A stretch of 64,000 nucleotides of DNA from a virus: the IMG/VR virus record IMGVR_UViG_3300026290_000001; one strand, given 5' to 3'. Below are positions 1,868 to 18,951 of the stretch, piece by piece. Both the position numbers and the translations under genes were made by a program. The notes beneath the pieces are model-generated. The model had not been told where the DNA came from. It made no database searches and saw nothing but the letters and a program-made list of their open reading frames with translations. Position 1 is the first letter of the stretch. Each line of letters starts with the position of its first letter.

Positions 1868-1905
1868 TGCTTTCATAAAAACTAAAAAATAAGGAGAATA
1901 AATAT

Positions 1906-2340: not shown

Positions 2341-2387
2341 AACATCATAGAATAACGGTTTGGTGCAAAGTGAGGTGAAATTATTAA

Positions 2388-2552
2388 ATGACTTTTGGAT
2401 TTACTTATTTTATCTCTAAAAGGGATAAAAGCGCAGAAAGAATAATTAATATTGAAGCAGAGTCGGAAGAACAGGCATTTGATAAATACATAAAGTTTTT
2501 AAGTGAGCATCATATGGTTATGGGTGAATCACTTGGAGAAAAGTTAAAATAA
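2388..2552 (+). CDS. small hypothetical protein (54 aa), absent from the ORF track
   Basis: ATG 2388 after GTGAGGTGA RBS-like sequence; fills the gap between flanking genes. Confidence 0.3.
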   Translation: MTFGFTYFISKRDKSAERIINIEAESEEQAFDKYIKFLSEHHMVMGESLGEKLK

Positions 2553-2607
2553 AAACAACACAAAAAATCAATTTGGTTCAAACTTTTACAAAAAACACAA
2601 TATAAAA

Positions 2608-3378
2608 ATGAAAGGAGAATTAGTATATAAGTTGCAATTATACTATAAAGATGAATACATAAGATTATTTCAAGGTGATTGTTTAGAAGTAATGGATAGG
2701 TTAATTGAGAAAGGTGTTAAATTTGATGCAATAATTACTGATCCTCCTTACGGGACTACAGCTTGTAAATGGGATAGTATCATACCATTTGATAGTATGT
2801 GGGAAAGATTAAATAAGTTAATAAAGGATAATAGTGCAATAGTTTTATTTGGTAGTGAACCATTTAGTAGTCATTTAAGAGTAAGTAATATTAAAAATTT
2901 TAAATATGATTGGATATGGAATAAAAAGAAGGGAGGAAGTCCTTTACTTTCTAAAATACAACCAATAAAAATATTTGAAATTATATCTGTTTTTGGGAAA
3001 GGGAAAATAAATTATTATCCAGTAATGGTTGATAGAGATAAACCTAAATCAAGGGGTAAGAATAGAGGAACTATTAGTGATACAACAAATAATTGTTTTT
3101 CAGAAGATAAGATTTATACGCAATATTATCCTAAAGCAATTATAGAATTTTCAAATGCTAGTCAAAAAAATAAATTTCACCCAACTCAAAAACCAGTGGA
3201 GCTAATGGAATATCTTATTAACACATATACACAAGAGAATGAAATTATATTAGATTTTACTTGCGGTTCTGGTACAACATTATTAGCATCAAGAAATCTT
3301 AAAAGAAAATGTATCGGTATTGAATTGGAAGAAAAATATTGTGAAATAACTAAACAAAGATTAGAAAAAGCAAGTTAA
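2608..3378 (+). CDS. DNA methyltransferase, beta-class (DPPY)
   Basis: Motif IV AIITDPPYG, motif I DFTCGSGTT, TQKP motif; ATG 2608 overlaps the AAAGGAGAA RBS, so in-frame TTG 2632 may be the true start. Confidence 0.8.
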   Translation: MKGELVYKLQLYYKDEYIRLFQGDCLEVMDRLIEKGVKFDAIITDPPYGTTACKWDSIIPFDSMWERLNKLIKDNSAIVLFGSEPFSSHLRVSNIKNFKYDWIWNKKKGGSPLLSKIQPIKIFEIISVFGKGKINYYPVMVDRDKPKSRGKNRGTISDTTNNCFSEDKIYTQYYPKAIIEFSNASQKNKFHPTQKPVELMEYLINTYTQENEIILDFTCGSGTTLLASRNLKRKCIGIELEEKYCEITKQRLEKAS

Positions 3379-3505
3379 ATATAAAAACAGCATAAAATTC
3401 TAGTTTGGTTCAAAAATAGACGCCTAAAGATTGGGATTCTTAGAGTATGGATTTTTCAAAATAATTATTAAAATAAAAATATAAATATTGGAGGTAAATA
3501 TATAA

Positions 3506-4345
3506 TTGATAGAATTAAATAATTTTTATATAGGGGAATCTGTTAATTTTATGCGTAAAAATATTCCTGATAATTTTGTAGATTTAACAGTTACAAGTCC
3601 ACCTTATGATGATTTAAGAAAATATAATGGATTTATTTTTGATTATGAAACAATTTTTAAAGAACTTTTTAGAATAACTAAAAATGGTGGAATTGTTGTA
3701 TGGATAATAGGAGATAAGACAGAAAAAGGAACGGAAAGTCTAACAAGTTTTAAACATGCTTTAAGTGCTAAAAATATAGGATTTAATGTTCATGATACAA
3801 TGATATGGTTAAAACCTAATCCAACACCAACTGATCCTAAATGTTTAAGATATTATAATGCTTTTGAATACATGTTCGTTTTTTCTAAAGGAAAACCAAA
3901 AACATGTAATTATATAAAAGAAAAATCTAAAAATACAGGTAAAGAATTTGGTTCAGCTCCAATGAAAAGAGTAGATGGAACTAACAGAGATGACAGAACT
4001 GAAAAGTTAAAGGGTATAAAAATAAAAGACTATAAAATTAAAAGTAATGTATGGGAATGTGCTATAGGTTCAGGGGTATCTAAAGATAAAATTGCTTTTA
4101 AACATCCAGCAATTTTCCCTGAAAAATTAGTTGAAGATCACATAATTTCTTGGACTAATAAAAATGATATTGTACTAGACCCTATGTGTGGTTCGGGTAC
4201 AACGTGCAAAATGGCATGGTTAAACAAGCGTAATTTTATTGGAATTGATATGAGTGAAGAATACATAAATAACATTTGTATACCAAGATTAAATACATAT
4301 GGTTGGGAACAGAATAAAGAAAACGTATTTCAAGATTGCCTATAA
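3506..4345 (+). CDS. DNA methyltransferase, SPPY type (N4-cytosine-like or N6-adenine)
   Basis: TTG start 9 nt after GGAGG; TVTSPPYDDLRKYNG and DPMCGSGTT; paralog of 8521..9323. Confidence 0.8.
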   Translation: MIELNNFYIGESVNFMRKNIPDNFVDLTVTSPPYDDLRKYNGFIFDYETIFKELFRITKNGGIVVWIIGDKTEKGTESLTSFKHALSAKNIGFNVHDTMIWLKPNPTPTDPKCLRYYNAFEYMFVFSKGKPKTCNYIKEKSKNTGKEFGSAPMKRVDGTNRDDRTEKLKGIKIKDYKIKSNVWECAIGSGVSKDKIAFKHPAIFPEKLVEDHIISWTNKNDIVLDPMCGSGTTCKMAWLNKRNFIGIDMSEEYINNICIPRLNTYGWEQNKENVFQDCL

Positions 4346-4419
4346 ATTGGGCTTTATAATCTATAAAATCATTACCAAATTTGAGTTTGGTTCAAAGTTA
4401 TAGAAAGGAGAAATTATAA

Positions 4420-5256
4420 ATTATCAATACATATTATAAAAATAAATATGCAAGGATATATCAATGTGACAATTTAGAATTATTAAAACAATTACCAAAT
4501 GAATACATAGATTTAATTTATTGTGATATTTTATACAACACTGGTAAGAAATTTAAGGATTATGATGATCAATTAGGCACAACACAAGAAGCAATTAAAT
4601 GGTATAAACCAAGATTAATAGAAATGAAAAGAGTATTAAAGGAAACAGGATCAATTTATTTACATATGGATTTTAGATTAATACATTATTTAAAAGTAAA
4701 AATGGATGAAATATTTCAATTAAATAATTTTAGAAATGAGATTATATGGGATAAAGGATTTAGGGGTACGGAGCAAAAAGAGTTTTATCAACATTCGCAT
4801 GATTCAATATTATTTTATACAAAAACTAATAACTACATATGGAATAAAGTTTTTTGTGAATATGCTGATAAAAATATGAGTAGGTATAATAAAACTGATG
4901 AAGATGGAAATAAATATGCTTTAATTAAAAGAAAAAGAACAGACGGAAGTGTTTATTATGGCAAAACATATCCACAATCAGAAGGAAAGAAAGCAGACGA
5001 TGTATTTAGAGATATAAAAACTTTTTCATCAACAGCTAAAGAAAGAATTGGTTATGATACTCAAAAACCAAAGGCATTATTAGAACGTATTATTAAAGCA
5101 TCTTCTAATGAAGGAGATATAGTAGCAGACTTCTTTATGGGATCAGGCACTACTGGCGAAGTGGCATTAGAATTAGGTCGTAAATTTATTGGTTGTGATA
5201 TTGGGGAAAGGGCATGTGAGATTACTAAAAATAGATTAGATAAAATTATAATATAA
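4420..5256 (+). CDS. DNA methyltransferase homolog with degenerate motif IV (DILY); start uncertain (ATT 4420) or pseudogene
   Basis: Track ORF 4624..5256 has TQKP and DFFMGSGTT; upstream in-frame sequence ([31 protein letters not shown]) is clearly MTase N-terminus; no ATG/GTG/TTG between TAA 4417-4419 and 4624; ATT 4420 lies 9 nt after AAAGGAG. Confidence 0.55.
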
Positions 5257-5308
5257 AAACATGACAAAAACTATGTTTTATTTAGATTTTAAAAGAAAGG
5301 AGAAACAT

Positions 5309-5614
5309 ATGAAATTTATTAAAGATATTTCTAATATTATAATATTGCAAAATGATCATTGTAAATTTGAAATCAGAAGTGTACAAGGATTTAATGAAGA
5401 TGAAAATAAAATAATCTTAAAATGTGCCGAAGATATATCAGAGTTTAAAAAAGGTTATGTTTGTGATATGGAATGTCATTTTCCATTAGTTGAAAATGAT
5501 GGAGTTGAAGTTGGTGAAAGAATTGATACGATTCGAGACTTGGTATTGGTTTATATCAATAAAGATATTCAAATGGAATATGCCCCTAGTTTTGAATATG
5601 TATTTTATAAATAA
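5309..5614 (+). CDS. hypothetical protein
   Basis: Track ORF 5261..5614; ATG 5309 preceded by AAAGGAGAA is the likelier start. Confidence 0.5.
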   Translation: MKFIKDISNIIILQNDHCKFEIRSVQGFNEDENKIILKCAEDISEFKKGYVCDMECHFPLVENDGVEVGERIDTIRDLVLVYINKDIQMEYAPSFEYVFYK

Positions 5615-5659
5615 TAAAACAAAATTTCGATTTTATAACGATTTTAAAAGGAGGATATT

Positions 5660-5890
5660 ATGTTTAAAAAAATTAAAGTTAGAGAATTTTTAGAAGAAGT
5701 TTGCGGAGCAAAAGTTGATTGGATTTCTGGTAATGTAATTAAAGTAAATGAACATTATATTTATTTAGATAAAAAGAAATTTATTTTAAATTATGATTGG
5801 CATTTTTATGGAACAAAAAGAGATATATTAAAAACACTAAAAGAATATGGGTTTGTGATTAAAAAGAAATTACAGTTAAATTATTATTAG
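5660..5890 (+). CDS. hypothetical protein
   Basis: RBS AAAGGAGG then ATG. Confidence 0.5.
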   Translation: MFKKIKVREFLEEVCGAKVDWISGNVIKVNEHYIYLDKKKFILNYDWHFYGTKRDILKTLKEYGFVIKKKLQLNYY

Positions 5891-5906
5891 AAACGAAAGG
5901 AGAAAT

Positions 5907-6047
5907 ATGCATACTGAACTAACAGAGGATCAACTTAAACTAATAAAAAAGTATGGGGAAATTAATCCACCACATCATACTATTGAAGAAATTGAAGAAG
6001 CATTGAAAAAATCATCTGAAATTAAAATAAAATTACAAGAAAAATAA
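5907..6047 (+). CDS. small hypothetical protein (46 aa), absent from the ORF track
   Basis: AAAGGAGAAAT then ATG 5907, stop TAA 6045-6047. Confidence 0.3.
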   Translation: MHTELTEDQLKLIKKYGEINPPHHTIEEIEEALKKSSEIKIKLQEK

Positions 6048-6165
6048 ATATCGTGATAAAATCTCTATTTGGTGCAGAAATGGATGGCTATATATTGGGA
6101 TTTGTGGGGCTATAAATTTTGAAAATAAAAACAAAAAATAAAGATAGGAGGTAAATATATAAAAT

Positions 6166-7158
6166 TTGCTTGAATTGAATAAAATATATAATGAAGATTG
6201 TATAATCGGCATGAAAAAATTATTAAAAGATGGTTACAAAAATACTTTTGATTTTATAGAAATTGATCCACCTTATAATATAGGCAAAGATAAATGGGAT
6301 AAATTTAAAAACCATCAAACATATTTAAATTTTATTAATGAAGTTATAAGTTTATCTAATGAATTAATGAGCGATAATGGAACCTTATTTTTATGGCATA
6401 ATAATATCGAGGTGTTATCAGATTTTATTAAATTAATTAATACTACAGATTTAAAATTAATGCAATTATGTATATGGAATAAATATTATAAATATAATGA
6501 TGACGGTAATTTGAATAATCAATACGGATTTTTAAATGGATTTATTCAAAGTGATTTAAATAGGAATTATCAAAAAATGTGCGAATATATTTTATATTAC
6601 ACTAAACAAAACGAAGAATTAACTGAATATAATGAAAAAGACCCATTTAAATCACTAAAGGAATATTTTTTTAATGCCCAAAAATCTTCTGGTTTATCAA
6701 GAAATAAAATTAATCAAATATTGGGGCATAGACAATCTGAGCATACTTTTTATACTAAAACTCAATGGACTTTTCCAACAGAAGAAACATATTTAGAATT
6801 ACAAAATATAATGAATCTACCTATCCCTTATAATGATTTAAAAAATACATATGAAACAATGAGATATACATATAATTCAGAGAAAAACAATTATCGAAGT
6901 TGTATTTGGAATTACCCGATAAGTAAAGAATCAAAACACAAGACAGAGAAACCGTTACAATTGTATTATGATTTATATGAAATACATACAAAAAATAATA
7001 GTAAATGTTTATTCCCGTTTGTGGGTAGTGGTAATAATATTTTAAGTTTATTTAAAATAAATAATTTTGATGGAGGGAAACGAGAGTTTGTAGGTTTTGA
7101 AACTGACAAAACATGGTTTACTTATATAAATGAAAAAATAGATTTAAGAATCCCGTAA
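6166..7158 (+). CDS. DNA methyltransferase, beta-class (DPPY)
   Basis: TTG start after AGGAGG; FIEIDPPYNIGKDKWD and FPFVGSGNN. Confidence 0.8.
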   Translation: MLELNKIYNEDCIIGMKKLLKDGYKNTFDFIEIDPPYNIGKDKWDKFKNHQTYLNFINEVISLSNELMSDNGTLFLWHNNIEVLSDFIKLINTTDLKLMQLCIWNKYYKYNDDGNLNNQYGFLNGFIQSDLNRNYQKMCEYILYYTKQNEELTEYNEKDPFKSLKEYFFNAQKSSGLSRNKINQILGHRQSEHTFYTKTQWTFPTEETYLELQNIMNLPIPYNDLKNTYETMRYTYNSEKNNYRSCIWNYPISKESKHKTEKPLQLYYDLYEIHTKNNSKCLFPFVGSGNNILSLFKINNFDGGKREFVGFETDKTWFTYINEKIDLRIP

Positions 7159-7211
7159 TATTGGGATTCTTAAACCCAAAAATCAACACCAAACTTCGGT
7201 TTGGTTCAAAG
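7149..7211 (+). promoter_or_regulatory. copy of the repeated intergenic module (GC-stem hairpin, AAAATCA…AAAC box, TTTGGTTCAAA box)
   Basis: ATCCCGTAATATTGGGAT hairpin overlapping the upstream stop, then AAAAATCAACACCAAAC, then TTTGGTTCAAA ~10 nt before the RBS. Confidence 0.35.
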
Positions 7212-7232
7212 TTATAGGAAGGAGAAAATAAT

Positions 7233-7427
7233 ATGTTTGATTGTAGATTCGCTAAAAGTATTCTATTGGATAAAAATGAAGATGATACTTATCATATGAC
7301 AATAAAAGGAGATATTTATAATCTTGATCCTGAAGCGGAAATTGATTTTTCTAGAGTGAAAATTATTAATTTTGATATTGAGGCATTAGCAACAACTGGG
7401 ACAATATGTAAAATAAAAATAATATAA
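7233..7427 (+). CDS. hypothetical protein
   Basis: GGAAGGAGAA RBS then ATG. Confidence 0.4.
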   Translation: MFDCRFAKSILLDKNEDDTYHMTIKGDIYNLDPEAEIDFSRVKIINFDIEALATTGTICKIKII

Positions 7428-7521
7428 AATTTTTGTTTGGTTAAGAAATTTATAATTATTATAGGGATTGATTTTACCATAATTTTAATATATAATAAAA
7501 ATAAAAACGGAGGTTTTATAT

Positions 7522-7692
7522 ATGGCGATTAAATTAGAATGTGATAAAATCATTCCAAAGTGTAGTGATTGTAAATATAATAAGGATTATTCTTCTTGGC
7601 AACATAAAATTCCTTGTGGAAAACAATTCTGTGTATATGGTTGTAATGTATGTAAAAATCCATGTGATGCAAAGGAGAATATGTCTTGGTAA
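7522..7692 (+). CDS. small cysteine-rich protein (56 aa, 10 Cys), absent from the ORF track
   Basis: RBS ACGGAGG then ATG 7522; stop 7690-7692. Confidence 0.35.
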   Translation: MAIKLECDKIIPKCSDCKYNKDYSSWQHKIPCGKQFCVYGCNVCKNPCDAKENMSW

Positions 7693-7720
7693 AAATTAAT
7701 ATTAATAAAGGAGTTATAGT

Positions 7721-8461
7721 TTGTATAAATCGCCTCTTAGATATCCAGGAGGTAAAAGCAGGGCGATAAAAATAATTATCGAGTATTTTCCGAAAAGTAT
7801 AAAAGTTATGAGTTCTCATTTTGTAGGAGGAGGATCAATTGAACTTTATTTATCTGAAAATAATAAAATAATTGCGTATGATAATTTCGATCTGCTTATT
7901 AACTTTTGGAATCAATTAAAATATAAAAATAAAAATTTACATAATACAATATTAAAATATTACCCGTTAACAAAAGAACAATTTTTAGATATACAAAAAA
8001 ATATTTATAATTCAGATGATGAAGTTGAAATGGCCGCTAAATTTTATGTTTTAAATAGATGTAGTTTTTCAGGTAGTACATTAAGCGGTGGAATGTCACT
8101 AAATCATCCAAGATTTAATATTAATTTAATACATAAACTTCAGGAAGTAAATTTAAAAAATATTGAGTTTATTTGTATGGATTTCAAAGAATCAATATTA
8201 TTACATCAAAATAATTTTAAGTATTTAGACCCACCCTATTATATTGAAAATAATTTATATGGAGTAAAAGGAGGGTTACATAAAAATTTCGATCATATTG
8301 GTTTGAATGGTATTTTAAAACAATCATCTAATTGGGTATTAAGTTACAATGATTGTGAATACATAAGAAAACTTTATGAAGGATGCAAAATAATACAAGT
8401 TGATTGGAAATACGGAATGAGTAAAGATAAAAAATCTAATGAAATTCTTATAATAAATTAG
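7721..8461 (+). CDS. Dam-like N6-adenine DNA methyltransferase (D12 class)
   Basis: TTG start after AAAGGAG; N-terminal LRYPGGKSR and later FKYLDPPYY, the Dam-family motif order. Confidence 0.8.
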   Translation: MYKSPLRYPGGKSRAIKIIIEYFPKSIKVMSSHFVGGGSIELYLSENNKIIAYDNFDLLINFWNQLKYKNKNLHNTILKYYPLTKEQFLDIQKNIYNSDDEVEMAAKFYVLNRCSFSGSTLSGGMSLNHPRFNINLIHKLQEVNLKNIEFICMDFKESILLHQNNFKYLDPPYYIENNLYGVKGGLHKNFDHIGLNGILKQSSNWVLSYNDCEYIRKLYEGCKIIQVDWKYGMSKDKKSNEILIIN

Positions 8462-8520
8462 TAATATAAAAACAATATAAATATTTGGTTTGGTCATGAA
8501 ATATGAAAGGAGATTATATT

Positions 8521-9323
8521 TGATAGAATTAAATAATTTTTACATAGGCGAGTCTGTTAATTTTATGCGTTACAATATTCCAGACAACTACATTGATTTA
8601 ACTATTACTTCACCACCTTATGATGATTTAAGAAAATATAATGGATTTATATTTGATTATCAAAGTATGTTTAAGGAATTATATAGAGTTACTAAAGACG
8701 GTGGAATTGTAGTTTGGGTAGTAGGAGATAAAACTGAAAATGGTAGTGAAACATTAACAAGTTTTAAACATGCTTTATATGCTAAAGAAATCGGTTTTAA
8801 TGTTCACGATACACAAATTTATTATAAGAATAATCCTATACCAACAACAGGCAATAGATATCATCAACACTTTGAATATATGTTCGTATTTAGCAAGAAT
8901 AAACCAAGGGTATTTAATCCAATCAAGGAAGATTGTAAATATAGTGGTTTGGCTAATATGAAAAATAGAGGCAAGGATGGTTCATTAAATTATACTAAAA
9001 TTGAAAGAACTAAAGATAAAAAGGTAGGTAATGTTTTCTTTTATTCTATTGGAGGGGGTATTACTACTAAAGATAAAATTGCTTATAGTCATCCTGCGTT
9101 GTTTCCAGATAAATTAGCCGAAGATCAAATAATAACTTGGAGCAATAAAGAAGATATTATTTTTGACCCAATGTGCGGTAGTGGTACTACTTGTAAAATG
9201 GCATGGTTAAATAAAAGAAATTTTATTGGAATTGATATAAGTGAAGAATATATAAATGATATTTGTATACCTAGACTAAATATATATGGTTGGCAACAAA
9301 AGCAAAATATAAAAATATCATAA
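8521..9323 (+). CDS. DNA methyltransferase, SPPY type; paralog of 3506..4345
   Basis: Track ORF 8490..9323; the ATG lies upstream of the AAAGGAGA RBS, so TTG 8521 is the probable start; TITSPPYDDLRKYNG, DPMCGSGTTCKMAWLNKRNFIGID. Confidence 0.8.
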
Positions 9324-9428
9324 AATAAAAATCCCAATTTCTAGGGATTTACAAAACTCAAAAACATGATCAAAACTTCGTTTTGTTACATCAATAAAAC
9401 AATAAAATAAATTAAGGAGGGAAATAAA

Positions 9429-9884
9429 ATAGCGGATTTTGATAACAATAGATTTGCTTCAAAAAATCAAGAGTACGCAACACCTTGGGAATTATTTAAT
9501 AAGATAAATGAAGAATTTAATTTTACCTTAGATGTGTGTGCAGATGAAAATAATCATAAAGTTGATACATATTTTACGGAAGAACAAAATGCTCTTATCC
9601 AAAATTGGAAAGGAGTATGTTGGATGAATCCACCTTATAAGGATATGAAAAAATGGGTTATAAAAGCATACGAAGAATCAGTTAAAAATGATAGTATTGT
9701 GGTTTGTTTAATTCCAGCAAGAACTAATACCAAATGGTGGCATGAGTATTGCATGAAAGGTGAAATAAGATTTATTAAAGGTAGACCAAAATTTGAAGGA
9801 TGTATTCATGGTTTACCACAACCATTAGCAATTGTTGTTTTTGGAAAAGAATATAAAAATACATATGGTTCATTAGCAATTTAG
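9429..9884 (+). CDS. phage-type N6-adenine DNA methyltransferase (NPPY); probable ATA start
   Basis: Track ORF 9534..9884 (GTG) carries VCWMNPPYK; upstream in-frame ADFDNNRFASKNQEYATPWELFNKINEEFNFTLDVCAD is the family N-terminus; frame opens at 9411; ATA 9429 is 8 nt after AAGGAGG. Confidence 0.7.
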   Translation: MADFDNNRFASKNQEYATPWELFNKINEEFNFTLDVCADENNHKVDTYFTEEQNALIQNWKGVCWMNPPYKDMKKWVIKAYEESVKNDSIVVCLIPARTNTKWWHEYCMKGEIRFIKGRPKFEGCIHGLPQPLAIVVFGKEYKNTYGSLAI

Positions 9885-9910
9885 TAAAAATATCAAGCAA
9901 ACAATGATAT

Positions 9911-9955
9911 ATAGGCATTTTCAACTTATCACAAATGCCTATATATTGGGCTTTT
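9911..9955 (+). terminator. perfect 10-bp stem hairpin followed by a short T-run, candidate intrinsic terminator
   Basis: ATAGGCATTT (9911-9920), 12-nt loop, AAATGCCTAT (9933-9942), then ATATTGGGCTTTTAC. Confidence 0.35.
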
Positions 9956-10014
9956 ACAAAAATCATTACCAAAATATCATTTTATATTAATTAGAAAGGA
10001 GAAACAAAATATAA

Positions 10015-10584
10015 TTGAGTAAAAAATATAACATTATATATGCTGACCCACCTTGGAAACCTACTGAGAGTGGTACAGGAGTTAGAGGTACGGCAGATTT
10101 AAAAAAACGATATCAAGGTGTAATGAGTATAGAAGAAATATGTGCTTTACCAGTAAAAGATATATGTGAAGATACATGCATACTGTTTTTATGGGTTACA
10201 TTTCCAAGATTACAAGAAGGAATGAAAACTATTGAAGCGTGGGGATTTCAATATTATGGGTTGGGATTTGATTGGATTAAAACTAATCTTAAAAGTGGAA
10301 CTCCATTTTGGGGAATGGGTTATTATACTAGACAAAATTCAGAAATATGCTTAATAGGAGTAAAAAAGGATAAAAATAAAAGAATTAAACCACAAGTTAA
10401 AAATATTTTATCTGTAGTTCATTCACCAAGAAGAGAACATAGTCAAAAACCTGATGAAATAAGAGATTACATAGTTAAAATTTGTGGTGATTTACCTAGA
10501 ATAGAATTATTTGCTAGACAAAAAGTTGAAGGTTGGGACGCATGGGGCAATGAAATTGAAAATGATATTATATTAAATACATAA
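10015..10584 (+). CDS. MT-A70 family N6-adenine DNA methyltransferase (DPPW)
   Basis: TTG start after AAAGGAGAA; IIYADPPWKP motif and family-typical downstream blocks. Confidence 0.75.
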   Translation: MSKKYNIIYADPPWKPTESGTGVRGTADLKKRYQGVMSIEEICALPVKDICEDTCILFLWVTFPRLQEGMKTIEAWGFQYYGLGFDWIKTNLKSGTPFWGMGYYTRQNSEICLIGVKKDKNKRIKPQVKNILSVVHSPRREHSQKPDEIRDYIVKICGDLPRIELFARQKVEGWDAWGNEIENDIILNT

Positions 10585-10667
10585 AATAAAAATTATCATA
10601 AAAGTCTGAATTGGTTTAGAGTTAATAAAAATGAAAAATAAAAATAGGGAGGTATCTAATACATAAA

Positions 10668-11438
10668 TTGATTGAATTGAATACTATTTATAATGAAGAT
10701 TGTATTAACTTTATGAAGAAACTACCTAATGAATCTATTGATTTAATAATTGCCGATCCACCTTATTTTGAAATATGCGGAGAGTTTGATTTTATATGGA
10801 AATCATTAGATGACTATTTAAATTGGTCTAAAGAATGGATTTTACAATGTTATAATATTTTAAAACCATCAGGCAGTATTTATATATGGGGTAAAATTGG
10901 ATTTGGTAAGGGGTATTCTTTATTTAAAATTGCAGATTGGATAGAGAATGAAAAACTGTTTATTATAAAAAATTGGATTACTCAACGTAATACAAGAGGG
11001 AGAGGAACAAAGAAAGGGTATATAGAGGCAAGAGAAGAACTTCTGTTTTGCGTAAAGTCTAATCAATGTACTTGGAATATTGCTTATACCGAAGAAAAAT
11101 CTAATAGAAAAGATTTAGGATTTGATGGCAAACCTAGAAAAAATGAGTTTAAAAGATGCTCTGATGTATGGATTGATATAGCTGAAGCAAGTCAATCAAG
11201 TAATGAAAGATTTAAAACATTTAATGGTAAAACTTTTCCAACAGTTAAAGCACAAAAATTATGTAATAGAATTATTTTGGCAAGTTCTAATGAAAATGAT
11301 TTAGTTTATATTCCCTTTGCTGGTTCTGGAAGTGAAATTGAATCTTGTATAAAAAATAAAAGAAATTGGATTGCGACAGAAATTAATAATCAATACATAA
11401 ATGAAATCATTGAACCTAGAATTAAACGTATAATATAA
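10668..11438 (+). CDS. DNA methyltransferase, beta-class (DPPY)
   Basis: TTG start after GGGAGG; LIIADPPYFE and IPFAGSGSE. Confidence 0.8.
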   Translation: MIELNTIYNEDCINFMKKLPNESIDLIIADPPYFEICGEFDFIWKSLDDYLNWSKEWILQCYNILKPSGSIYIWGKIGFGKGYSLFKIADWIENEKLFIIKNWITQRNTRGRGTKKGYIEAREELLFCVKSNQCTWNIAYTEEKSNRKDLGFDGKPRKNEFKRCSDVWIDIAEASQSSNERFKTFNGKTFPTVKAQKLCNRIILASSNENDLVYIPFAGSGSEIESCIKNKRNWIATEINNQYINEIIEPRIKRII

Positions 11439-11665
11439 AAAATAAAAATCATGATAAAATAAGTGTTTTATCATAATATTGCAGAAATCAGTATTTTGGT
11501 AGGTTATCAACAAATACACACAACAAAGCCCTAAATGGTGGGAATGAAAAGGTATTTTAAGTGGATTAACTCTACCAAAGTAAAAAATATTTGAACCAAA
11601 TGCGTCTTTTATTCAAAGTTTATTAAAAACATAAAATAAATATAAAGAAAAGAGGATTATATATA

Positions 11666-12370
11666 TTGAAACATATTTTAAGTTTTAGTGGCGGCAAAGA
11701 TTCAACCGCAATGTTACTCATAATGTTAGAGAGAGAATATCCAATAGATGAAATTATATTTTGCGATACTGGTAAAGAATTTCCTGCTTTATATAGACAT
11801 ATTGATAAAGTTGAAGAATACATAAACCAACCTATAACTAGGCTTAAAGGAGAAAAAACTTTTGATTATTGGATGTTCGAACATGAAAAAACCAAAGGTA
11901 AACATTTAGGTAAAAAGGGTTATGGTTGGGCAGACACCAGAGCAAGATGGTGTACAGCATATTTTAAGCGTGAAATTATGAATAAATACATAAAAGAAAA
12001 ATATAATAATGAATATAAAGAGTATGTAGGTATTGCTTATGATGAGTTTAAAAGATATGAGAAAACACAAAATGGTCATAAAAAATATCCTTTAATTGAA
12101 TGGAAAATAACTGAAGGTATGGCTCTAAAATATTGCTATGATAAAGGATTTGATTGGGAAGGAGTATACACACATTTTGAACGGGTATCTTGCTGGTGCT
12201 GCCCTTTAAAAAATCAGAGAGAATTATATATGCTTTATTCTTTCTATCCTGAATTATGGGCAGAACTCAAAGATATGGATAGTAGAGCATGGAACCAGTT
12301 TAAAAGAGATTACAGTGTTCAGGATTTAGAAGATAAATTTAGGGGATGGCAAGACATAATAAAAATATAA
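11666..12370 (+). CDS. PAPS reductase family protein (PP-loop, with C-terminal CC cluster)
   Basis: TTG start after AAGAGGA; PP-loop SFSGGKDS; C-terminal SCWCCP. Confidence 0.7.
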   Translation: MKHILSFSGGKDSTAMLLIMLEREYPIDEIIFCDTGKEFPALYRHIDKVEEYINQPITRLKGEKTFDYWMFEHEKTKGKHLGKKGYGWADTRARWCTAYFKREIMNKYIKEKYNNEYKEYVGIAYDEFKRYEKTQNGHKKYPLIEWKITEGMALKYCYDKGFDWEGVYTHFERVSCWCCPLKNQRELYMLYSFYPELWAELKDMDSRAWNQFKRDYSVQDLEDKFRGWQDIIKI

Positions 12371-12434
12371 ATATTTACTTTCTTTATAGTATGGTGTATA
12401 ATAAATATATCATATCTATATAGGAGGTTAAATT

Positions 12435-12644
12435 ATGAAAACATATAAAACTGAATCAGGAGAAGAATGGTTATATTTTGATGAATGGTTAGTAGAAAAC
12501 AGTTATTATAAATGGAAAAAACAATATGATATTTTAGCAAGTACGGGGACAGATGAAGAAGAAATAGATAGGATTAAAGACGATTTATTAAAACAATTCT
12601 ATGATTTTTGTGAAGAATATGGGTATGTTGGTCAGGAAGTATAA
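12435..12644 (+). CDS. hypothetical protein
   Basis: RBS TAGGAGG then ATG. Confidence 0.45.
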   Translation: MKTYKTESGEEWLYFDEWLVENSYYKWKKQYDILASTGTDEEEIDRIKDDLLKQFYDFCEEYGYVGQEV

Positions 12645-12668
12645 TTTATAATTTTTGTGTTTTACGAA

Positions 12669-12728
12669 CCCCTAAATAATGGGGTTTGTGAAACCAAAAA
12701 TCATGATAAAACTCATCTTTTGTGTTGA
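12669..12728 (+). promoter_or_regulatory. copy of the repeated intergenic module
   Basis: CCCCTAAATAATGGGG hairpin, AAAAATCATGATAAAAC, TTTTGTGTTGA. Confidence 0.35.
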
Positions 12729-12764
12729 TATTAAAATTTAAATATAAGGAGGTAATATTATTAA

Positions 12765-13517
12765 TTGTTTGAATTAAATAAAATATATTGTGTTGATTGT
12801 TTAGAAGGGATTAAAAATATAGAAAGTGGCAGTATTGATATGGTATTTTTTGATCCTCCTTTCAATTTAAACAAAGATTATGGAATTAAAATTAATGATA
12901 ATTTAATAAAAGAAAAATATTTAAACTGGCAGTATGAAATATTAAAAGAATCTATTAGAGTGCTATGTGATAATGGGGCAATAATTTATCATACTATCCC
13001 AAAATGGGCATTTAAAATAGCTAATTATCTTGATGAACAAGGAATGGTTTTTCAAAATTGGATTTGTTGGAATGAATCAGGATCAACACCTACCCCTTCA
13101 AGATTATATCCTAAACATTATCCTATTCTTTGGTTTTCTAAGAATAAACTCAAAACTTTTAATAAACAATATATTCCCATAGAAAGATGCAGAAAGTGCA
13201 ATACTACTATAAAAGATTATGGTGGCAAATTTAAAGATTTAAAAGAAATAGATGGTGAAAAAGTAACTGTTTTAAGTGATGTATGGGACGATATACATAG
13301 AATAAGACATAATAAAAATAAAAATAGAAAATCAAATGAACTTCCCGAAATTTTAATGGAAAGAATAATTAACTTATATTCTAAAGAAAATGATATAATT
13401 TTAGACCCATTTTCAGGTAGTGGGACAACATGTAAAATAGCAAAGAAACTAAATAGACAATATATTGGATTTGAAATTAATCCTGAATACATAAAAATCT
13501 CAAAAGAACGTATTTAA
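12765..13517 (+). CDS. DNA methyltransferase, beta-class (DPPF)
   Basis: TTG start after AAGGAGG; VFFDPPFNLNKDYG and DPFSGSGTT. Confidence 0.8.
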   Translation: MFELNKIYCVDCLEGIKNIESGSIDMVFFDPPFNLNKDYGIKINDNLIKEKYLNWQYEILKESIRVLCDNGAIIYHTIPKWAFKIANYLDEQGMVFQNWICWNESGSTPTPSRLYPKHYPILWFSKNKLKTFNKQYIPIERCRKCNTTIKDYGGKFKDLKEIDGEKVTVLSDVWDDIHRIRHNKNKNRKSNELPEILMERIINLYSKENDIILDPFSGSGTTCKIAKKLNRQYIGFEINPEYIKISKERI

Positions 13518-13598
13518 AACAACAAAATAATATTATTGACGTTGTTGACTTTGTTTGTGAAAATTGATATAATTAATAAAAATGTAGGAGGTATATTT

Positions 13599-13859
13599 AT
13601 GGCAGTACGCAGACAAAGGGCAACAACTAGTGCAGAAATAATGGATAAAGATATTAAAATAGTAATTAAAAAATCAAAAGTTCGCTATAGAAGTGTAGAA
13701 TCAAAATCTCATGGTTTTGTTAATGAATTTTGGATTGAAAAAATTGATGATTTATTTTTTTCAGGAGGTAAAATAAGTGAAGAAAGAATTTATCAACATT
13801 GGAAATTCAACTTTGATAAAAATAAGTGGGAGTGTATAGAAGACAAATCTAAAAATTAA
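13599..13859 (+). CDS. hypothetical protein
   Basis: Track ORF 13536..13859; ATG 13599 after TAGGAGG is the likelier start. Confidence 0.45.
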   Translation: MAVRRQRATTSAEIMDKDIKIVIKKSKVRYRSVESKSHGFVNEFWIEKIDDLFFSGGKISEERIYQHWKFNFDKNKWECIEDKSKN

Positions 13860-13878
13860 TTTAATAAGAAAAATACAA

Positions 13879-13940
13879 ATCCCATTATATCGGACTTCAT
13901 TTTTATAAAAATCATGATAAAACTTGTCTTTTGTCATGAT
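13879..13940 (+). promoter_or_regulatory. copy of the repeated intergenic module
   Basis: ATCCCATTATATCGGA, AAAAATCATGATAAAAC, TTTTGTCATGA. Confidence 0.35.
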
Positions 13941-13972
13941 ATTAAAACAAAAATAAATATGGAGGTTAAAAT

Positions 13973-15394
13973 ATAATTAAATTAAATAAGTTTGCATTAG
14001 TACAATTAACTCCAAAAGATATGCGAAGCCAAGATAGTATAAATTTAGGATTAGAAATTATATCTGAAATAGTTAAAAAACAAGGTTGGCAATTAGATAC
14101 ATATAAATTCGGAGATAAAATTCAAGATGTTAATTCATATGATATTATAGGGTTTAGTTTATTCTATTTTACACAAATGTTAAATTTAGTTCCATTCCTA
14201 AAGAGTAATAATATTAAACCATTAAGTAGTAAAAGAAACAATCAACCACTATTATTAGCTGGCGGTCAAGGTATTCAAAATCCTAAACCAATTAGTAAAT
14301 TTATTGATGTATTTTGTATGGGTGAGGGTGAGGGGGTTTTGGAATATATCTTAGAAAATTATAAAAATAAAAATATTTTATCAAACCATAAGTCTTTGTA
14401 TATACCAAATATAAATGATAATTTTATATTCAACTCAATAAAAGATGTTGATTCTAAACCTATAATTTATGGTAAAAATAGCATGATAGAATTAACGAGG
14501 GGATGTAAAAATAGATGTAAGTTTTGTCAGTATGGATGGACAAATGGTAAATATCGAGAAAAAAACATCGAACTAGTAAAACAACAAATATTAGAGGTTA
14601 AAGATAAAGGCATTAAAAATATTAACTTGTTAAGTTGTAATTTGGGTGGTTATTCTAAGATAAATGAAGTTCTTGATTTTTGTATAGAAGAAAATATTAG
14701 ATTAATGAATACCGATATGAGAATTGACGAATATAGTGAAGAAATAGCTATAAAATTAGACCTACTAAAAGTGAGAACTCTAAAAGTTGGAGTAGAAAGC
14801 TTTTCTGATCAAACACGAATTGGTATTAATAAGAATATTTCAAAAATACAATTAGATACTTTTATTGACAGAGCTTTGAAGCATAATATATCAAATTTAC
14901 ATTTTTATTTAATATACGGACTTCCAAACGAAGAAAACTATAATGAATGGTTTAATTATATGGAATACATAAAAAATAGAATAAAATCTGTTGATAGAAA
15001 TATAAGAATTGAATTTAGTATTACTAATTTTGAACCAGCAATATATACACCCTTTGAAAAAAGTCCTTTAATTAATTTCCAAGACAAGCATAAATTTATG
15101 AGAGAATATTTAATAAAACAAGAAGAATTGGGTTATATAAAACAACCCGCACAAACAAAAGATTATAAAAATAGTCATGGAAGATTAGGCAGAAAAGAAC
15201 GAAGTTATAATATTGGAATGTGGTTACTACATGGGGACGAAACTGTAGGGGATGTGTTATATGAATTAAACATTAAAGGAATAGGTAGGAGTATAAATGA
15301 AAAGATTTATAATCAAATTTATAAAATATGCCAATCAAAAACTGATGTTTATCAAATAAGAAACATTCAAGATTTAAATGAAAATATATGGTGA
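13973..15394 (+). CDS. B12-binding-domain radical SAM protein; probable ATA start
   Basis: CX3CX2C radical SAM motif (GCKNRCKFCQ); upstream GEGEG-containing B12-binding-like segment; frame opens at 13970; ATA 13973 is 7 nt after GGAGG; track ATG 14021 has no RBS. Confidence 0.7.
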   Translation: MIKLNKFALVQLTPKDMRSQDSINLGLEIISEIVKKQGWQLDTYKFGDKIQDVNSYDIIGFSLFYFTQMLNLVPFLKSNNIKPLSSKRNNQPLLLAGGQGIQNPKPISKFIDVFCMGEGEGVLEYILENYKNKNILSNHKSLYIPNINDNFIFNSIKDVDSKPIIYGKNSMIELTRGCKNRCKFCQYGWTNGKYREKNIELVKQQILEVKDKGIKNINLLSCNLGGYSKINEVLDFCIEENIRLMNTDMRIDEYSEEIAIKLDLLKVRTLKVGVESFSDQTRIGINKNISKIQLDTFIDRALKHNISNLHFYLIYGLPNEENYNEWFNYMEYIKNRIKSVDRNIRIEFSITNFEPAIYTPFEKSPLINFQDKHKFMREYLIKQEELGYIKQPAQTKDYKNSHGRLGRKERSYNIGMWLLHGDETVGDVLYELNIKGIGRSINEKIYNQIYKICQSKTDVYQIRNIQDLNENIW

Positions 15395-15402
15395 TGTCCA
15401 TG

Positions 15403-15460
15403 CCTATAAATTGGGATTCTCAACACTCAAAAACATGATAAAACTAGTTTTTGGTCATGA
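15403..15460 (+). promoter_or_regulatory. copy of the repeated intergenic module
   Basis: CCTATAAATTGGGATTC, AAAAACATGATAAAAC, TTTTGGTCATGA. Confidence 0.35.
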
Positions 15461-15470
15461 AATTAAATGC

Positions 15471-15499
15471 TTGACAAATATTAATTAAAATAGTAATAT
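15471..15499 (+). promoter_or_regulatory. sigma-70/sigmaA-type promoter upstream of the ligase gene
   Basis: TTGACA (15471-15476), 17-nt spacer, TAATAT (15494-15499); RBS GGGAGGAAGG; ATG 15526. Confidence 0.5.
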
Positions 15500-15525
15500 A
15501 AAGATACTGCGAAGGGAGGAAGGTT

Positions 15526-17397
15526 ATGAGTGAAATAGAAAATCTCAAACAACAATTAGATTACCATGATGATTTGTATTACAATCAAGACGATCCTGAA
15601 TTATCTGATGTGGAATATGATGCTTTAAAACAAGAATATCTTAATTCAGTTAATCAACAAGAATACAACTATATACCTGGGCAAGCACAATTTAAAAAAT
15701 TCACACACACATTCCCTATTAAATCATTGGGGAAAATAAATACTATTGAACAAGCAAGAAAAGAAATTGAAAGGTTATATCCAGTAGTTATTGAACCTAA
15801 ATATGATGGATTAACCTTAGTGTTATATGGTGAAGGGAAAGTAGTAACTAGAGGTAGTGGTCAAATCGGAGAAGATGTTACTGCAAATGCTTCTAGATTT
15901 ATGCGTACTTATAATCCATATGGTTTACCTATTCGTGGCGAAGCAATTATGCCTATATCAGTGTTCCATGAAATTAACAAACAAAGGGATGTAGAAGGTA
16001 AGGAATTATTTAAAAATCCAAGAAATGCAATAGCAGGTATTCTTAGAAATAAAGATAATAGTAATATCCCTAAAGGGTTAAGATTTATTGCTTATGAAAT
16101 CGTAGGATCAGCAGAATCCCATATTCAACAATTATTAGAACTTAAAAAATACTATGATATACCTGAAGCAGATACTATTTGGAATTATAGTGAAATTGAT
16201 GATGCAGTAAAATTCATAGAAAACTTTGATCGTTCTAAATTAGATTATGAAATTGATGGATTAGTTATTAAATCTAATAAGACAAATGCATTAGATATTT
16301 TTGGTGAAACTGAACATCATCCGAACCATAGTGTTGCCTACAAGTTTCCTTCTCAGGGAGAATGGACTGTATTAAAATCTATAACTTGGCAAACTGGTCG
16401 CACGGGCAGAATTACCCCTGTGGCAGAATTGGAACCAGTAGATATTATGGGAAGTACAATCGAACGTGCTACATTGCATAATATAGGGTATATTAGTGGT
16501 TTAGATTTACAGCTATATGATAAGGTGTTTTTAGTGAAAAGTAATGATATTATTCCCGCTGTGATTAAATGTGAGCATACTAAAAATAGTAAACCTATTG
16601 AAATTATAAACAAGTGTCCTTCATGTGGAAGTGAATTAAAAATTATCAATGATCAATTATTCTGTATTAATGATGATTGTTTGGCAAAATTATTATATAG
16701 AACTTCTCATATGGTTAGTCGAGATGCCCTTAATATAGATGGTCTTAGTGAGCAAACCATTTTAAAAATGATTGAAGCAGGATATATTAATAAACCTTGG
16801 GATATATTTGATGTTACTGAAACAGAAATATTAAAATTAGATGGTTTTGCAAAGAAATCTGCCAAAAAAATATATGAAAATATTCAAAATGCAAGAAATT
16901 GTGATTTTGATAGAGCAATTTACGCTTGTGGAATTGAACTGATAGGCAGAAAGGTTAGTAAAGATATTGCAAAAGAATTTGAGACTATTGATAATTTGTT
17001 ATATTGTTTAAGACGTGATGATGCTAGAAGTATATTAGGTATGATTGATGGTATTGGTAATACCACTATAGATAGTTTATTGAATAACGTTAATATTTTA
17101 GAAAATATGGTGGATTATTTAAGTATTAGTAGTGTTGAAAAGAAAGAAACAACTTTTAAATCTCTTGAAAATATTACATTTGTAGTTACCGGAAATGTAG
17201 AAACATTTAAAAACCGTAAAGAGTTAGAAGAATTGATCACTTCTCTTGGTGGTAAGTTAAGTGGATCAGTTTCAAGTAAAACTAATTATTTAATCAACAA
17301 CGATATTACCTCCAATTCTGGTAAGAATAAAAAGGCAAACGAATTAGGGGTAGAAATTATTAGTGAAATACGATTTAATGAAATGATAGGTAGGTAA
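15526..17397 (+). CDS. ligA: NAD-dependent DNA ligase (LigA type)
   Basis: Adenylation motif KYDG (EPKYDGLTL); Cys4 zinc finger (CPSCGSEL…C…C); C-terminal BRCT-like region; 623 aa. Confidence 0.85.
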   Translation: MSEIENLKQQLDYHDDLYYNQDDPELSDVEYDALKQEYLNSVNQQEYNYIPGQAQFKKFTHTFPIKSLGKINTIEQARKEIERLYPVVIEPKYDGLTLVLYGEGKVVTRGSGQIGEDVTANASRFMRTYNPYGLPIRGEAIMPISVFHEINKQRDVEGKELFKNPRNAIAGILRNKDNSNIPKGLRFIAYEIVGSAESHIQQLLELKKYYDIPEADTIWNYSEIDDAVKFIENFDRSKLDYEIDGLVIKSNKTNALDIFGETEHHPNHSVAYKFPSQGEWTVLKSITWQTGRTGRITPVAELEPVDIMGSTIERATLHNIGYISGLDLQLYDKVFLVKSNDIIPAVIKCEHTKNSKPIEIINKCPSCGSELKIINDQLFCINDDCLAKLLYRTSHMVSRDALNIDGLSEQTILKMIEAGYINKPWDIFDVTETEILKLDGFAKKSAKKIYENIQNARNCDFDRAIYACGIELIGRKVSKDIAKEFETIDNLLYCLRRDDARSILGMIDGIGNTTIDSLLNNVNILENMVDYLSISSVEKKETTFKSLENITFVVTGNVETFKNRKELEELITSLGGKLSGSVSSKTNYLINNDITSNSGKNKKANELGVEIISEIRFNEMIGR

Positions 17398-17400
17398 AAT

Positions 17401-17640
17401 ATGAACGATAAAATCTATATTATACCTAGAGAAGATAAACCAATAAAATTCATTATTGAAGAATTACCATGTCCTATCTGTTCACAAATTGGATATGATT
17501 TTAGATGTGAACATGCCAAAAGTAGTTTTAAAGATTTAATATATACAATATCTTGTACTAATTTTAATCATTGTGAAAATGCAGAGAATATATCATTGAA
17601 ATTCAATGAGTTAATACAAGATGAGTTGTTAACCACTTGA
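17401..17640 (+). CDS. hypothetical Cys-rich protein
   Basis: ATG immediately after the ligase stop; CPICSQ…CEH…C. Confidence 0.45.
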   Translation: MNDKIYIIPREDKPIKFIIEELPCPICSQIGYDFRCEHAKSSFKDLIYTISCTNFNHCENAENISLKFNELIQDELLTT

Positions 17641-17950
17641 CAGATTAGTAAAATAAATATATAATAAAATTACAACAAAATATCAAAAATATCAATTTTA
17701 CAAATCCCAATATATAGCCATTCTTGAAGGTGAAAATCAACACCAAATCTGCGTTTTGTCACAACTTTTATGAATGCTAATATACAGGGCTTGAGAATTG
17801 CTATTTTAAGCGAAAATACGGTAAAATCAATGGTTTTAAGTAATTACTAAAATTAGCTTTACATAAAGTCCAATATATAGGCGTTTATAATTCTAAAAAT
17901 CGTGACAAAAGTGTCATTTTGTTTAGAAATTATAGAAAGGGGAATTAAAT

Positions 17951-18136
17951 ATGGATAAAAATTTTTTATTGCTTTGTTCATATGAGAATATGGAAGGAAT
18001 GCTAGAAAGAGATTTTGAATGGTATCAAACAGAAGAAAACATGAGAGAAAGCATTGAAGATAAAAAAGAATTTATAAAAGATTTTACGGTCAATAAAGCA
18101 ATAGAAATATTACAAGTTAGAAATATAGAAATATAA
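17951..18136 (+). CDS. hypothetical protein
   Basis: RBS AAAGGGGAA then ATG. Confidence 0.4.
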   Translation: MDKNFLLLCSYENMEGMLERDFEWYQTEENMRESIEDKKEFIKDFTVNKAIEILQVRNIEI

Positions 18137-18192
18137 TTTAAATAATAAACCTTAGTAATAAAAACATTAAAAGGAGATGAATTATACATAAT

Positions 18193-18951
18193 TTGATTGA
18201 ATTGAATAAAATTTATAATGAAGATTGTATAGGTGGAAGGGGTATGTGTTTAATCCCAAATGAATCAATCGATATGATTTTATGTGATCTTCCGTATGGA
18301 ACTACGATGGCGAAATGGGATAAGATTATCAACCAAGAAGAATTGTGGACGCAGTATAGAAGGATAATTAAACCCAGAGGGGCAATTGTACTAACTTCTA
18401 GTCAGCCATTTTCAAGTGCTTTAATATATAAAAACCTAGACATTTATAGGCATTCATGGGTTTGGGAAAAGAACAATTCTGCAGATTATGCCAATGCAAA
18501 TTGTAGACCAATGAAAATACATGAGGAAGTATTGGTATTTTCATTCGCACATGATGTTGCTCCTGCTAAAGTAAAGATGATTTATAATCCACAGGGGCTA
18601 ATACCAGTTAATAAGCCCAATCGGAGAGGTAGACATAGTGAAACAACAGGTCATTTTAGAGAGAATGAGTACATACAAAAATACACAAACTATCCTACTA
18701 CAATATTGAGGTTTGCTTCAGATAAAGATAAAATTCACTCTACACAAAAACCTGTGGCGTTGTTTGAATATCTTATAGAAACATATAGTAATGAAGGTGA
18801 TTTGGTTTTAGATAATTGTATAGGCTCAGGCACAACAGCGATTGCGTGTATAAACATCAAACGTAAATTTATAGGGTTTGAAAATGACAATACATATTTT
18901 GAGTTAGCAAACAAAAGAATAGAAGAACATAAATGTAAAATAAATATTTGA
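18193..18951 (+). CDS. DNA methyltransferase, beta-class, motif IV variant DLPY
   Basis: TTG start after AAAGGAGA; MILCDLPYGTT; TQKP; DNCIGSGTT. Confidence 0.75.
   Translation: MIELNKIYNEDCIGGRGMCLIPNESIDMILCDLPYGTTMAKWDKIINQEELWTQYRRIIKPRGAIVLTSSQPFSSALIYKNLDIYRHSWVWEKNNSADYANANCRPMKIHEEVLVFSFAHDVAPAKVKMIYNPQGLIPVNKPNRRGRHSETTGHFRENEYIQKYTNYPTTILRFASDKDKIHSTQKPVALFEYLIETYSNEGDLVLDNCIGSGTTAIACINIKRKFIGFENDNTYFELANKRIEEHKCKINI

Follow-up and report, generated by a model that had tools for sequence, protein, structure and literature searches.

An SspD/DndC-like PP-loop protein and a class-B-like radical SAM protein as candidate stand-alone accessory enzymes in a phage methyltransferase island

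Here, we analysed a 64,000-nucleotide stretch of viral DNA (IMG/VR record IMGVR_UViG_3300026290_000001, referred to below as the window), concentrating on two genes in its methyltransferase island. One encodes a PP-loop protein with the fold of 3'-phosphoadenosine-5'-phosphosulfate (PAPS) reductase, the other a radical S-adenosylmethionine (SAM) protein of class B architecture. The explanation that we put forward, tentatively and at a probability which we place just short of even, is that these are two independent stand-alone accessory enzymes in an early anti-restriction region, the methyltransferase island, and not one pathway; the PP-loop protein would act in sulfur chemistry or counter-defence and the radical SAM protein as a one-enzyme modifier. 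The initial annotation of this DNA had described both genes from their motifs, and both open reading frames (ORFs) lie on the + strand exactly where it placed them, with SFSGGKDS, CWCCP, GEGEG and CX3CX2C all present. They are also, as it had stated, embedded among methyltransferases, being flanked by twelve DNA-methyltransferase-domain ORFs within 19 kb (237-18951), which Pfam divides into nine N6_N4, one D12 Dam, one PF05869 Dam and one MT-A70. Classification with hidden Markov models (HMMs) returned the same two enzyme classes, a PP-loop protein of the PAPS-reductase fold and a class-B-like radical SAM protein with a B12-type Rossmann domain. Neither gene was classed as a housekeeping metabolic enzyme, since the PP-loop protein falls far below the CysH model and the radical SAM family is almost only phage-like.

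The PP-loop and radical SAM genes are unlinked and are probably not steps of one pathway. The initial annotation had joined them with a ligase and proposed a common product, so that the three enzymes would build a single thio-, deaza- or C-methyl-hypermodified base or nucleotide. In favour of such a joint pathway, the genes share a single strand and a stretch of 6 kb inside a DNA-modification island, and PP-loop and radical SAM pairs do exist, QueC and QueE in 7-deazaguanine synthesis being the known example. To set against this, we gathered 15 and later 32 independent contexts of the radical SAM gene from IMG/VR, metagenome contigs and GTDB genomes, and clustered the neighbours found within 5 kb. 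Searched with a profile of the PP-loop family, the flanks retrieved for all other radical SAM loci (up to 10 kb) contained no copy of the gene. No neighbour is conserved across the 32 contexts and no cluster occurs in more than three of them, those that reach three being an N6/N4 methyltransferase, a C5 methyltransferase and RlaP. The PP-loop gene, for its part, stands alone in many unrelated phages. The ligase is a complete canonical NAD-dependent LigA (adenylation, OB, HhH and BRCT domains) situated at the edge of the replication module, and it would serve replication. The deaza-type product did not hold up either: no 7-deazaguanine pathway protein was matched among the window ORFs scanned against Pfam, and the combination that marks 7-deazaguanine DNA modification, QueC and QueE together with DpdA, FolE and QueD, was not found among them. 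We therefore regard a single joint pathway as very unlikely. What survives of the proposed modification beyond methylation is the presence of both enzyme classes, which are plausible DNA-modification or anti-restriction tools; the joint pathway with the ligase and the deaza route are not supported. That either enzyme modifies DNA is, judged from their sequences, a reasonable hypothesis.

The PP-loop ORF begins MKHILSFSGGKDSTAML and also contains RVSCWCCPLKN. Its product matches PF01507 (PAPS_reduct) above cutoff (3.9e-11) and phrog_424 over residues 1-205 (1.2e-49, 170.5 bits). Its homologs in the metagenomic protein collection number over 3,594, which places it in a very common phage family. 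SGGKDS, C96, C157 and C176-W-C178-C179-P are invariant in 26 homologs. Among the PADLOC profiles, which form a library without curated cutoff, SspD scored best (8.4e-28, 95.9 bits, profile positions 1-205 of 277, the C-terminal last quarter remaining unaligned), followed by BrxP and DndC. The curated DndC model TIGR03183 gave 19.7 bits against a cutoff of 290, and a sequence search of the PDB gave no match for this protein.

The gene could also encode a true PAPS or adenosine-5'-phosphosulfate (APS) reductase, that is an auxiliary metabolic gene (AMG) raising host sulfur assimilation. The PF01507 match and the PHROG label speak for this, as do the APS and PAPS reductases found among the top matches of the fold search; such a role was proposed in a Bifidobacterium prophage study (10.64898/2026.02.18.706556) and is assumed by phage annotations and some papers. 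The CysH model PRK02090, however, reaches only 18.4 bits (cutoff 154), with a match confined to residues 3-64, whereas the SspD model gives 96 bits. ECGLH, the C-terminal catalytic motif of CysH, does not occur in the protein sequence. Moreover, other sulfur-assimilation genes were not seen, and the gene is located in anti-restriction or early regions beside methyltransferases. A reductase in the metabolic sense is thus highly improbable. As to the locations themselves, homologs were found between the large terminase (TerL) and portal genes in an Oscillospiraceae phage, among methyltransferases in phiCD119, adjoining a C5 methyltransferase in a temperate phage, and in the early regions of other temperate phages. 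In every phage context examined the PP-loop gene is an orphan.

SspD, BrxP and DndC, from the Ssp, BREX (bacteriophage exclusion) type 4 and Dnd systems respectively, are PP-loop subunits of DNA phosphorothioation systems (PMC12914056; PMC10853773), and BrxP and DndC make phosphorothioate DNA (PMC12914056). Our protein shares with them the PP-loop SGGKDS and the PAPS-reductase fold, and its conserved cysteines are compatible with an iron-sulfur (Fe-S) or persulfide site. It differs in being only 234 aa long, alone and phage-encoded, outside any host defence island, and in that the partners SspB/SspC, DndD/DndE and BrxC and a cysteine desulfurase were not found near the gene. The nickase SspB and the ATPase SspC are not adjacent to it, the neighbours being methyltransferases and small ORFs without matches. 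A second comparison is offered by the Vibrio podophage 44E38.1, whose p0018 is a 479-aa PAPS-domain::Dam fusion in an anti-restriction cassette (Piel et al.; 10.1101/2021.05.05.442762). Transfer of p0018 with one neighbouring gene allowed a phage to escape host Dnd (10.1101/2021.05.05.442762; cited thus in PMC13551039). In both phages a protein with a PAPS-reductase domain is associated with DNA adenine methyltransferase function; in Vibrio this is one fused polypeptide, whereas in our phage the PP-loop protein has a gene of its own, with methyltransferase genes on either side. Vibrio phages are missing from the 25 tblastn matches listed out of 34.

From these likenesses we infer a role in counter-defence or in DNA marking by sulfur or phosphorothioate chemistry. 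C96 and the cysteines of CWCC are the probable ligands of an Fe-S cluster, like that of APS reductase, TtuA and DndC. The enzyme would adenylate its substrate and transfer sulfur to nucleic acid, and may write a phosphorothioate-type mark on phage DNA, or imitate one, with sulfur from host donors; alternatively, it may otherwise blunt defences of the Dnd, Ssp or BREX-4 type. The precedent for this proposal is the Vibrio fusion, with its escape from Dnd. Several points weigh against it. Phosphorothioation needs an NTPase in addition to a PAPS-reductase-domain protein (PMC12914056). No DndD-, DndE- or SspC-type protein and no cysteine desulfurase was found among the window ORFs scanned against Pfam, the PADLOC scan having covered four ORFs only. 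Into the Vibrio recombinant a further gene, one without a known function, had been brought as well (10.1101/2021.05.05.442762), and p0018 belongs to a clade different from that of our protein. The PP-loop protein is an additional member of a populous, biochemically uncharacterised phage family for which anti-Dnd activity is the sole functional precedent.

The canonical-start ORF of the radical SAM gene contains FCMGEGEGVLEY and TRGCKNRCKFCQYGW, the latter being the CX3CX2C motif. Its product matches PF19864 (Radical_SAM_N2) above cutoff (3.3e-19) and PF04055 (Radical_SAM) with 56.5 bits against a cutoff of 29.5 (4.8e-15), and has no PHROG match. The barrel was modelled with a predicted local distance difference test (pLDDT) score of 94.6. 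An N-terminal Rossmann-type B12-binding domain precedes the radical SAM core, which is the class B architecture, and the C-terminal domain carries a conserved N-x2-GRxGRK-x2-SY-x3-M motif. C162-x3-C166-x2-C169 is invariant in 38 homologs. Since these three are the only invariant cysteines in the family, and none other is conserved in the N-domain, the protein lacks an auxiliary cluster and is not a methylthiotransferase of the MiaB/RimO type. The latter enzymes hold a second [4Fe-4S] cluster on three N-terminal cysteines and end in TRAM; our protein has neither, gave no TRAM match in Pfam, and scores 37 bits with the MiaB/RimO model TIGR00089 (cutoff 251).

Curated families place the protein nearby without claiming it. 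The best NCBIfam match is TIGR03960, a B12-binding radical SAM protein fused to DUF2344 (5.7e-38, 130.8 bits, cutoff 462.3, profile positions 253-481). The PF19864 N-domain and the radical SAM core are common to both, but the phage family is set apart by a clear score gap and lacks DUF2344 (no PF10105 match). As TIGR03960 is not mentioned in the literature searched, and the mentions of DUF2344 there do not concern that domain family, membership would give no function. MgmA (QCMT; PDB 9ccb), the B12-dependent radical SAM glutamine C-methyltransferase of methyl-coenzyme M reductase, shares 17% identity; its model TIGR04014 gives 40.9 bits (cutoff 360), and our protein differs by the GRxGRK...SY...M motif of its C-terminal domain and in being encoded by a phage, not a methanogen. 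A PDB sequence search retrieved only the core motif, with MiaB and MgmA at 1e-6 to 1e-7, and no close relative was found among the BFVD viral structures. The protein belongs to the class-B architectural group, lies below every curated family threshold and forms its own clade.

Cobalamin binding by the radical SAM protein is putative, a first point against the proposal of a B12-dependent modifier. The initial annotation had recognised the B12-binding region by GEGEG; the Rossmann-type domain and the string are both present, but the exact string is not conserved in the homologs, which retain only G101 and the acidic residues 102 and 104. The classical B12 motif reads DxHxxG...SxL...GG. Where this motif lies, the Rossmann domain of the family keeps possible remnants of it at invariant or near-invariant residues, S-[IV]-N-L-G (N8 and G10 invariant), [GA]-F-[NS]-[VI]-F-Y49 and G81-G82-Q-G84, with spacings that differ from the canonical ones, and matches to PF02310 (B12-binding) are weak or faint and confined to a few members. 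Two further points run in the same direction: AprD4 has the same architecture and is B12-independent, and a riboswitch scan of the window revealed no cobalamin or SAM riboswitch. The protein might accordingly be neither cobalamin-using nor a methylase, its Rossmann domain a vestigial AprD4-like scaffold and its reaction a dehydration, isomerisation or ring contraction of a nucleotide or small molecule. The differing spacings and AprD4 itself are in line with this, the B12-pocket-like residues and the faint PF02310 matches less so, and we consider it rather unlikely.

The start of the radical SAM gene is probably not the ATG at 14021 but ATT at 13976 or ATA at 13973. The ORF from ATG 14021 lacks the first β-strand present in homologs (MKKFALVQLTPKD), while the frame is open upstream to 13970 and encodes NIIKLNKFALVQLTPKD, in agreement with the homolog N-termini. 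A GGAGG lies at 13961-13965, and the stretch has no ATG, GTG or TTG. In contig L096, the gene 73% identical to ours is preceded by AGGAG, 7 nt and ATT AAG AAG TTT GCA (9950-10003), which aligns codon by codon with homologs starting MKKFAL. The open frame, the homolog N-termini, the GGAGG and the arrangement in L096 together make an ATT start at 13976 likely, and the ATT start appears conserved between the two phages, with GGAGG or AGGAG 7-10 nt ahead. Gene callers thus begin the protein 15 codons late, so that the first β-strand of the Rossmann domain is lost. A conserved weak start may keep expression of the enzyme low.

The radical SAM family is small and, so far, almost only found on phage-like contigs. 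A search of a 5.8-billion-protein metagenomic collection returned about 90 relatives at 30-100% identity, and among 1.84 billion representatives about 55 clusters (50% identity) scored above 200 bits, the next score being 176 bits or less. In 185,579 species-representative genomes a family-level match occurred on three short contigs of metagenome-assembled genomes only, and tblastn against INPHARED gave weak matches only. The window protein itself was also found on contigs of up to 138 kb. All loci whose neighbours were read look phage-derived (terminase with portal, UvsW, ThyX, RNR, Mom, many small ORFs). Beyond the family, dozens of IMG/VR viral contigs (L019-L090) carry distinct B12-like or COG1032-type radical SAM genes that score 37-132 bits with the family profile; class-B-like radical SAM proteins are therefore fairly common in viromes and apparently largely uncharacterised. 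In one lineage, with the same protein on seven contigs, the radical SAM gene overlaps a 341-aa ORF without Pfam match, which is followed by a PALP gene (pyridoxal-phosphate-dependent, cysteine-synthase-like fold; L005 9211-11099). The three could form a small lineage-specific operon.

A DNA role for the radical SAM protein is hinted at by its own place among methyltransferases, by the methyltransferase, MetK and Mom setting of L096, by Mom in a second lineage and by a gene fusion. L096 is the closest relative with a readable context (73% identity, same DnaB-primase-PolIIIα module), and its gene order is N6/N4 methyltransferase, 167-aa ORF, MetK, C5 methyltransferase, radical SAM, 69-aa ORF, N6/N4 methyltransferase, 101-aa ORF and Mom. 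The three-domain SAM synthetase MetK (7640-8683) and the Mom homolog (12888-13634) thus stand within the methyltransferase and radical SAM cluster, and MetK suggests that this phage supplements the SAM available to its modification enzymes; neither MetK nor Mom turned up in the 64 kb of the window. On a 198-kb contig (L003) with a radical SAM protein of 39% identity, Mom lies 467 bp downstream. The fusion, P0247 (867 aa, intact ORF, L099 3362-5965), joins a ParB-like and N6_N4-methylase-like module to a radical SAM domain of this family. Its N-terminal 440 residues align to P0355, a ParB-like/N6_N4 methyltransferase (pairwise E 1e-16; phrog_67, phrog_4715, phrog_21315), and read WINEI where P0355 reads VDPEY, at the usual position of DPPY-type catalytic motifs. 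This replacement gives the module the look of a DNA-targeting domain that has lost its activity. A 448-aa ORF without Pfam match precedes the P0247 gene.

As a one-enzyme modifier, the radical SAM protein would reductively cleave SAM and, with cobalamin, methylate an unactivated carbon, phage DNA being the likeliest target. That DNA is indeed the target we hold possible, at a probability below even. The more specific proposal of a cobalamin-dependent single-enzyme DNA C-methyltransferase, alkylating carbons beyond those served by conventional methyltransferases, appears unlikely to us. Its candidate targets would be purine C2 or C8, a deoxyribose carbon, or the methyl group of 5-methylcytosine (5mC), N6-methyladenine (m6A) or T, extended to ethyl. 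The enzyme would then co-opt the marks of the neighbouring methyltransferases and, in relatives, use SAM from the phage MetK, and the ParB/methylase-like::radical SAM fusion would represent a form of this enzyme directed to DNA. A phage radical SAM protein that acts on DNA is known in Pseudomonas phage M6. Its gp53 is an isomerase converting Nα-GlyT to Cα-GlyT, and up to 2021 no other radical SAM enzyme had been shown to introduce a modification into DNA (PMC8989533). Both are phage radical SAM proteins in a modification gene cluster, action on DNA being only proposed for ours; gp53, in contrast, has an unrelated fold of the spore-photoproduct-lyase type and belongs to a conserved 5-hydroxymethyldeoxyuridine (5-hmdU) pathway. 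No paper on a phage cobalamin-dependent radical SAM protein was found in the literature searched.

A number of observations count against DNA as the substrate, and some of them favour RNA or protein. The nearest solved structures are MgmA, RimO and MiaB, which act on protein glutamine, protein S12 and tRNA, respectively, and none acts on DNA. Family-wide, methyltransferase and Mom neighbours are not enriched: a DNA methyltransferase or Mom lies within 5 kb in 6-7 of the 32 contexts, as compared with 11 of 65 for other viral B12-like radical SAM genes (Fisher p 0.6-1.0). The neighbours found instead include RlaP in three of the 32 contexts (L002, L111, L119), the peptidyl-tRNA hydrolase PTH2 directly upstream in L097, an RNA ligase with an AAA_33/KTI12-type kinase in L013-L018, and ThyX, RNR or thymidine kinase in some others. 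The fusion P0247, moreover, is a single sequence from a 6-kb contig. The enzyme could accordingly methylate tRNA or rRNA, in escape from anticodon nucleases or in retuning of translation, or carry out an MgmA-like C-methylation of protein, and its position in the methyltransferase island would then reflect a general region of accessory genes only. On the other side, the protein lacks TRAM, any other RNA-binding domain and an auxiliary cluster, no tRNA genes were found in the window, the L096 gene again lies between DNA methyltransferases with MetK and Mom, and in one member of the family the radical SAM domain is joined to a ParB/DNA-methylase-like module. The median pI of the family, 8.4, is uninformative on nucleic-acid binding. 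Taken together, RNA or protein is a serious possibility, though clearly a minority one, and what probability remains falls to a small molecule or nucleotide.

The features discussed, together with others in the window, are collected in Table 1. The window is AT-rich (GC about 27%). Up to about 43 kb the + strand encodes DnaB, primase, RecJ, a PHP/PolIIIα-type polymerase and a RecD/Dda-type helicase, as well as NrdD with an NrdG-like activase, dUTPase, dNMP kinase and 5'-nucleotidase; beyond this point, the − strand encodes an integrase, a holin, an SLH-domain amidase and YomG-type tail proteins. By its polymerase, the closest cultured relative is Clostridium phage Amboise (48% identity), and the host is therefore probably an anaerobic Firmicute. 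The integrase, nucleotide module, SprT-like motif, DUF488-N3a protein, PolIIIα-type polymerase and YomG-type tail proteins resemble SPbeta, and we presume a large temperate SPbeta-like phage. Megablast against INPHARED revealed no near-identical phage.

Table 1. Positions of the two enzymes and of other features in the window (predicted features are described by their likeness)
Feature	Position	Strand	Remarks
Orphan PP-loop ATP pyrophosphatase, PAPS-reductase fold, SspD/DndC/BrxP-like, phrog_424	11666..12370	+	234 aa
Small acidic ORF, between PP-loop gene and next methyltransferase	12435..12644	+	69 aa; no Pfam, PHROGs or PADLOC match
N6/N4 DNA methyltransferase, separates PP-loop and radical SAM genes	12765..13517	+	PF01555 2.5e-53, phrog_67 4.7e-57
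Promoter-like site TTGACT, 17 nt, TATAAT, with TG	13545..13573	+	11/12 consensus positions
Small basic ORF, just upstream of radical SAM gene	13599..13859	+	86 aa from internal ATG after GGAGG-coding stretch; contains NVGGIFMAVRRQR
Class-B-architecture radical SAM enzyme	13976..15394 (probable start; canonical-start ORF 14021-15394, 457 aa)	+	B12-type Rossmann domain, radical SAM 3/4 barrel, helical C-terminal domain
SprT-like metalloprotease motif	35344-35688		
DUF488-N3a protein	36423-36758		
Anaerobic nucleotide module	37593-43346		NrdD, NrdG-like, dUTPase, dNMP kinase, NT5C
Tyrosine integrase	46457-47461		

The methyltransferase island is exceptionally dense. Two of its ORFs look N-terminally short, one covering positions 34-123 of 169 of the Dam profile (9534-9884) and the other with a match beginning at position 39 of the N6_N4 profile (4624-5256), and these may be truncated or start at unlisted codons. 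The small ORFs adjoining the PP-loop and radical SAM genes have no homologs in any HMM library scanned. The basic one upstream of the radical SAM gene found no match in Pfam, PHROGs or PADLOC and is not kept beside this gene at other loci. The promoter-like site could drive this ORF and the radical SAM gene, on evidence that is weak; in the promoter and terminator scan of the AT-rich region, consensus sites were not above shuffles. Elsewhere on the − strand, the phage carries an IscB-like element (54449-56029), made up of a 430-aa protein with RRXRR and HNH (54449-55741) and, preceding its gene, a full-length HEARO RNA (Rfam RF02033, 121.7 bits, 55819-56029). HEARO is the ωRNA partner of IscB in RNA-guided nucleases of the IS200/IS605 type.

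Useful enzymes have come from the modifications of phage DNA, which drive the arms race between phages and the restriction, BREX, Dnd/Ssp and CRISPR systems. The annotation carried by the PP-loop protein is among the commonest AMG labels in viromes, and with an SspD/DndC-like member that lacks the CysH motif there is reason not to count such genes among the AMGs of sulfur metabolism; its classification points instead toward counter-defence related to phosphorothioation. For the radical SAM protein, a B12-type enzyme that writes on DNA would, if true, add radical C-alkylation to known genome chemistry. Such an enzyme would be the first of the class-B radical SAM group with DNA as its known substrate, and phage genomes would gain a new type of base or sugar modification, a notable discovery. 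Even if the target is RNA or protein, this compact, partner-free and almost phage-only family, with its high-confidence model, is unusually tractable for biochemistry.

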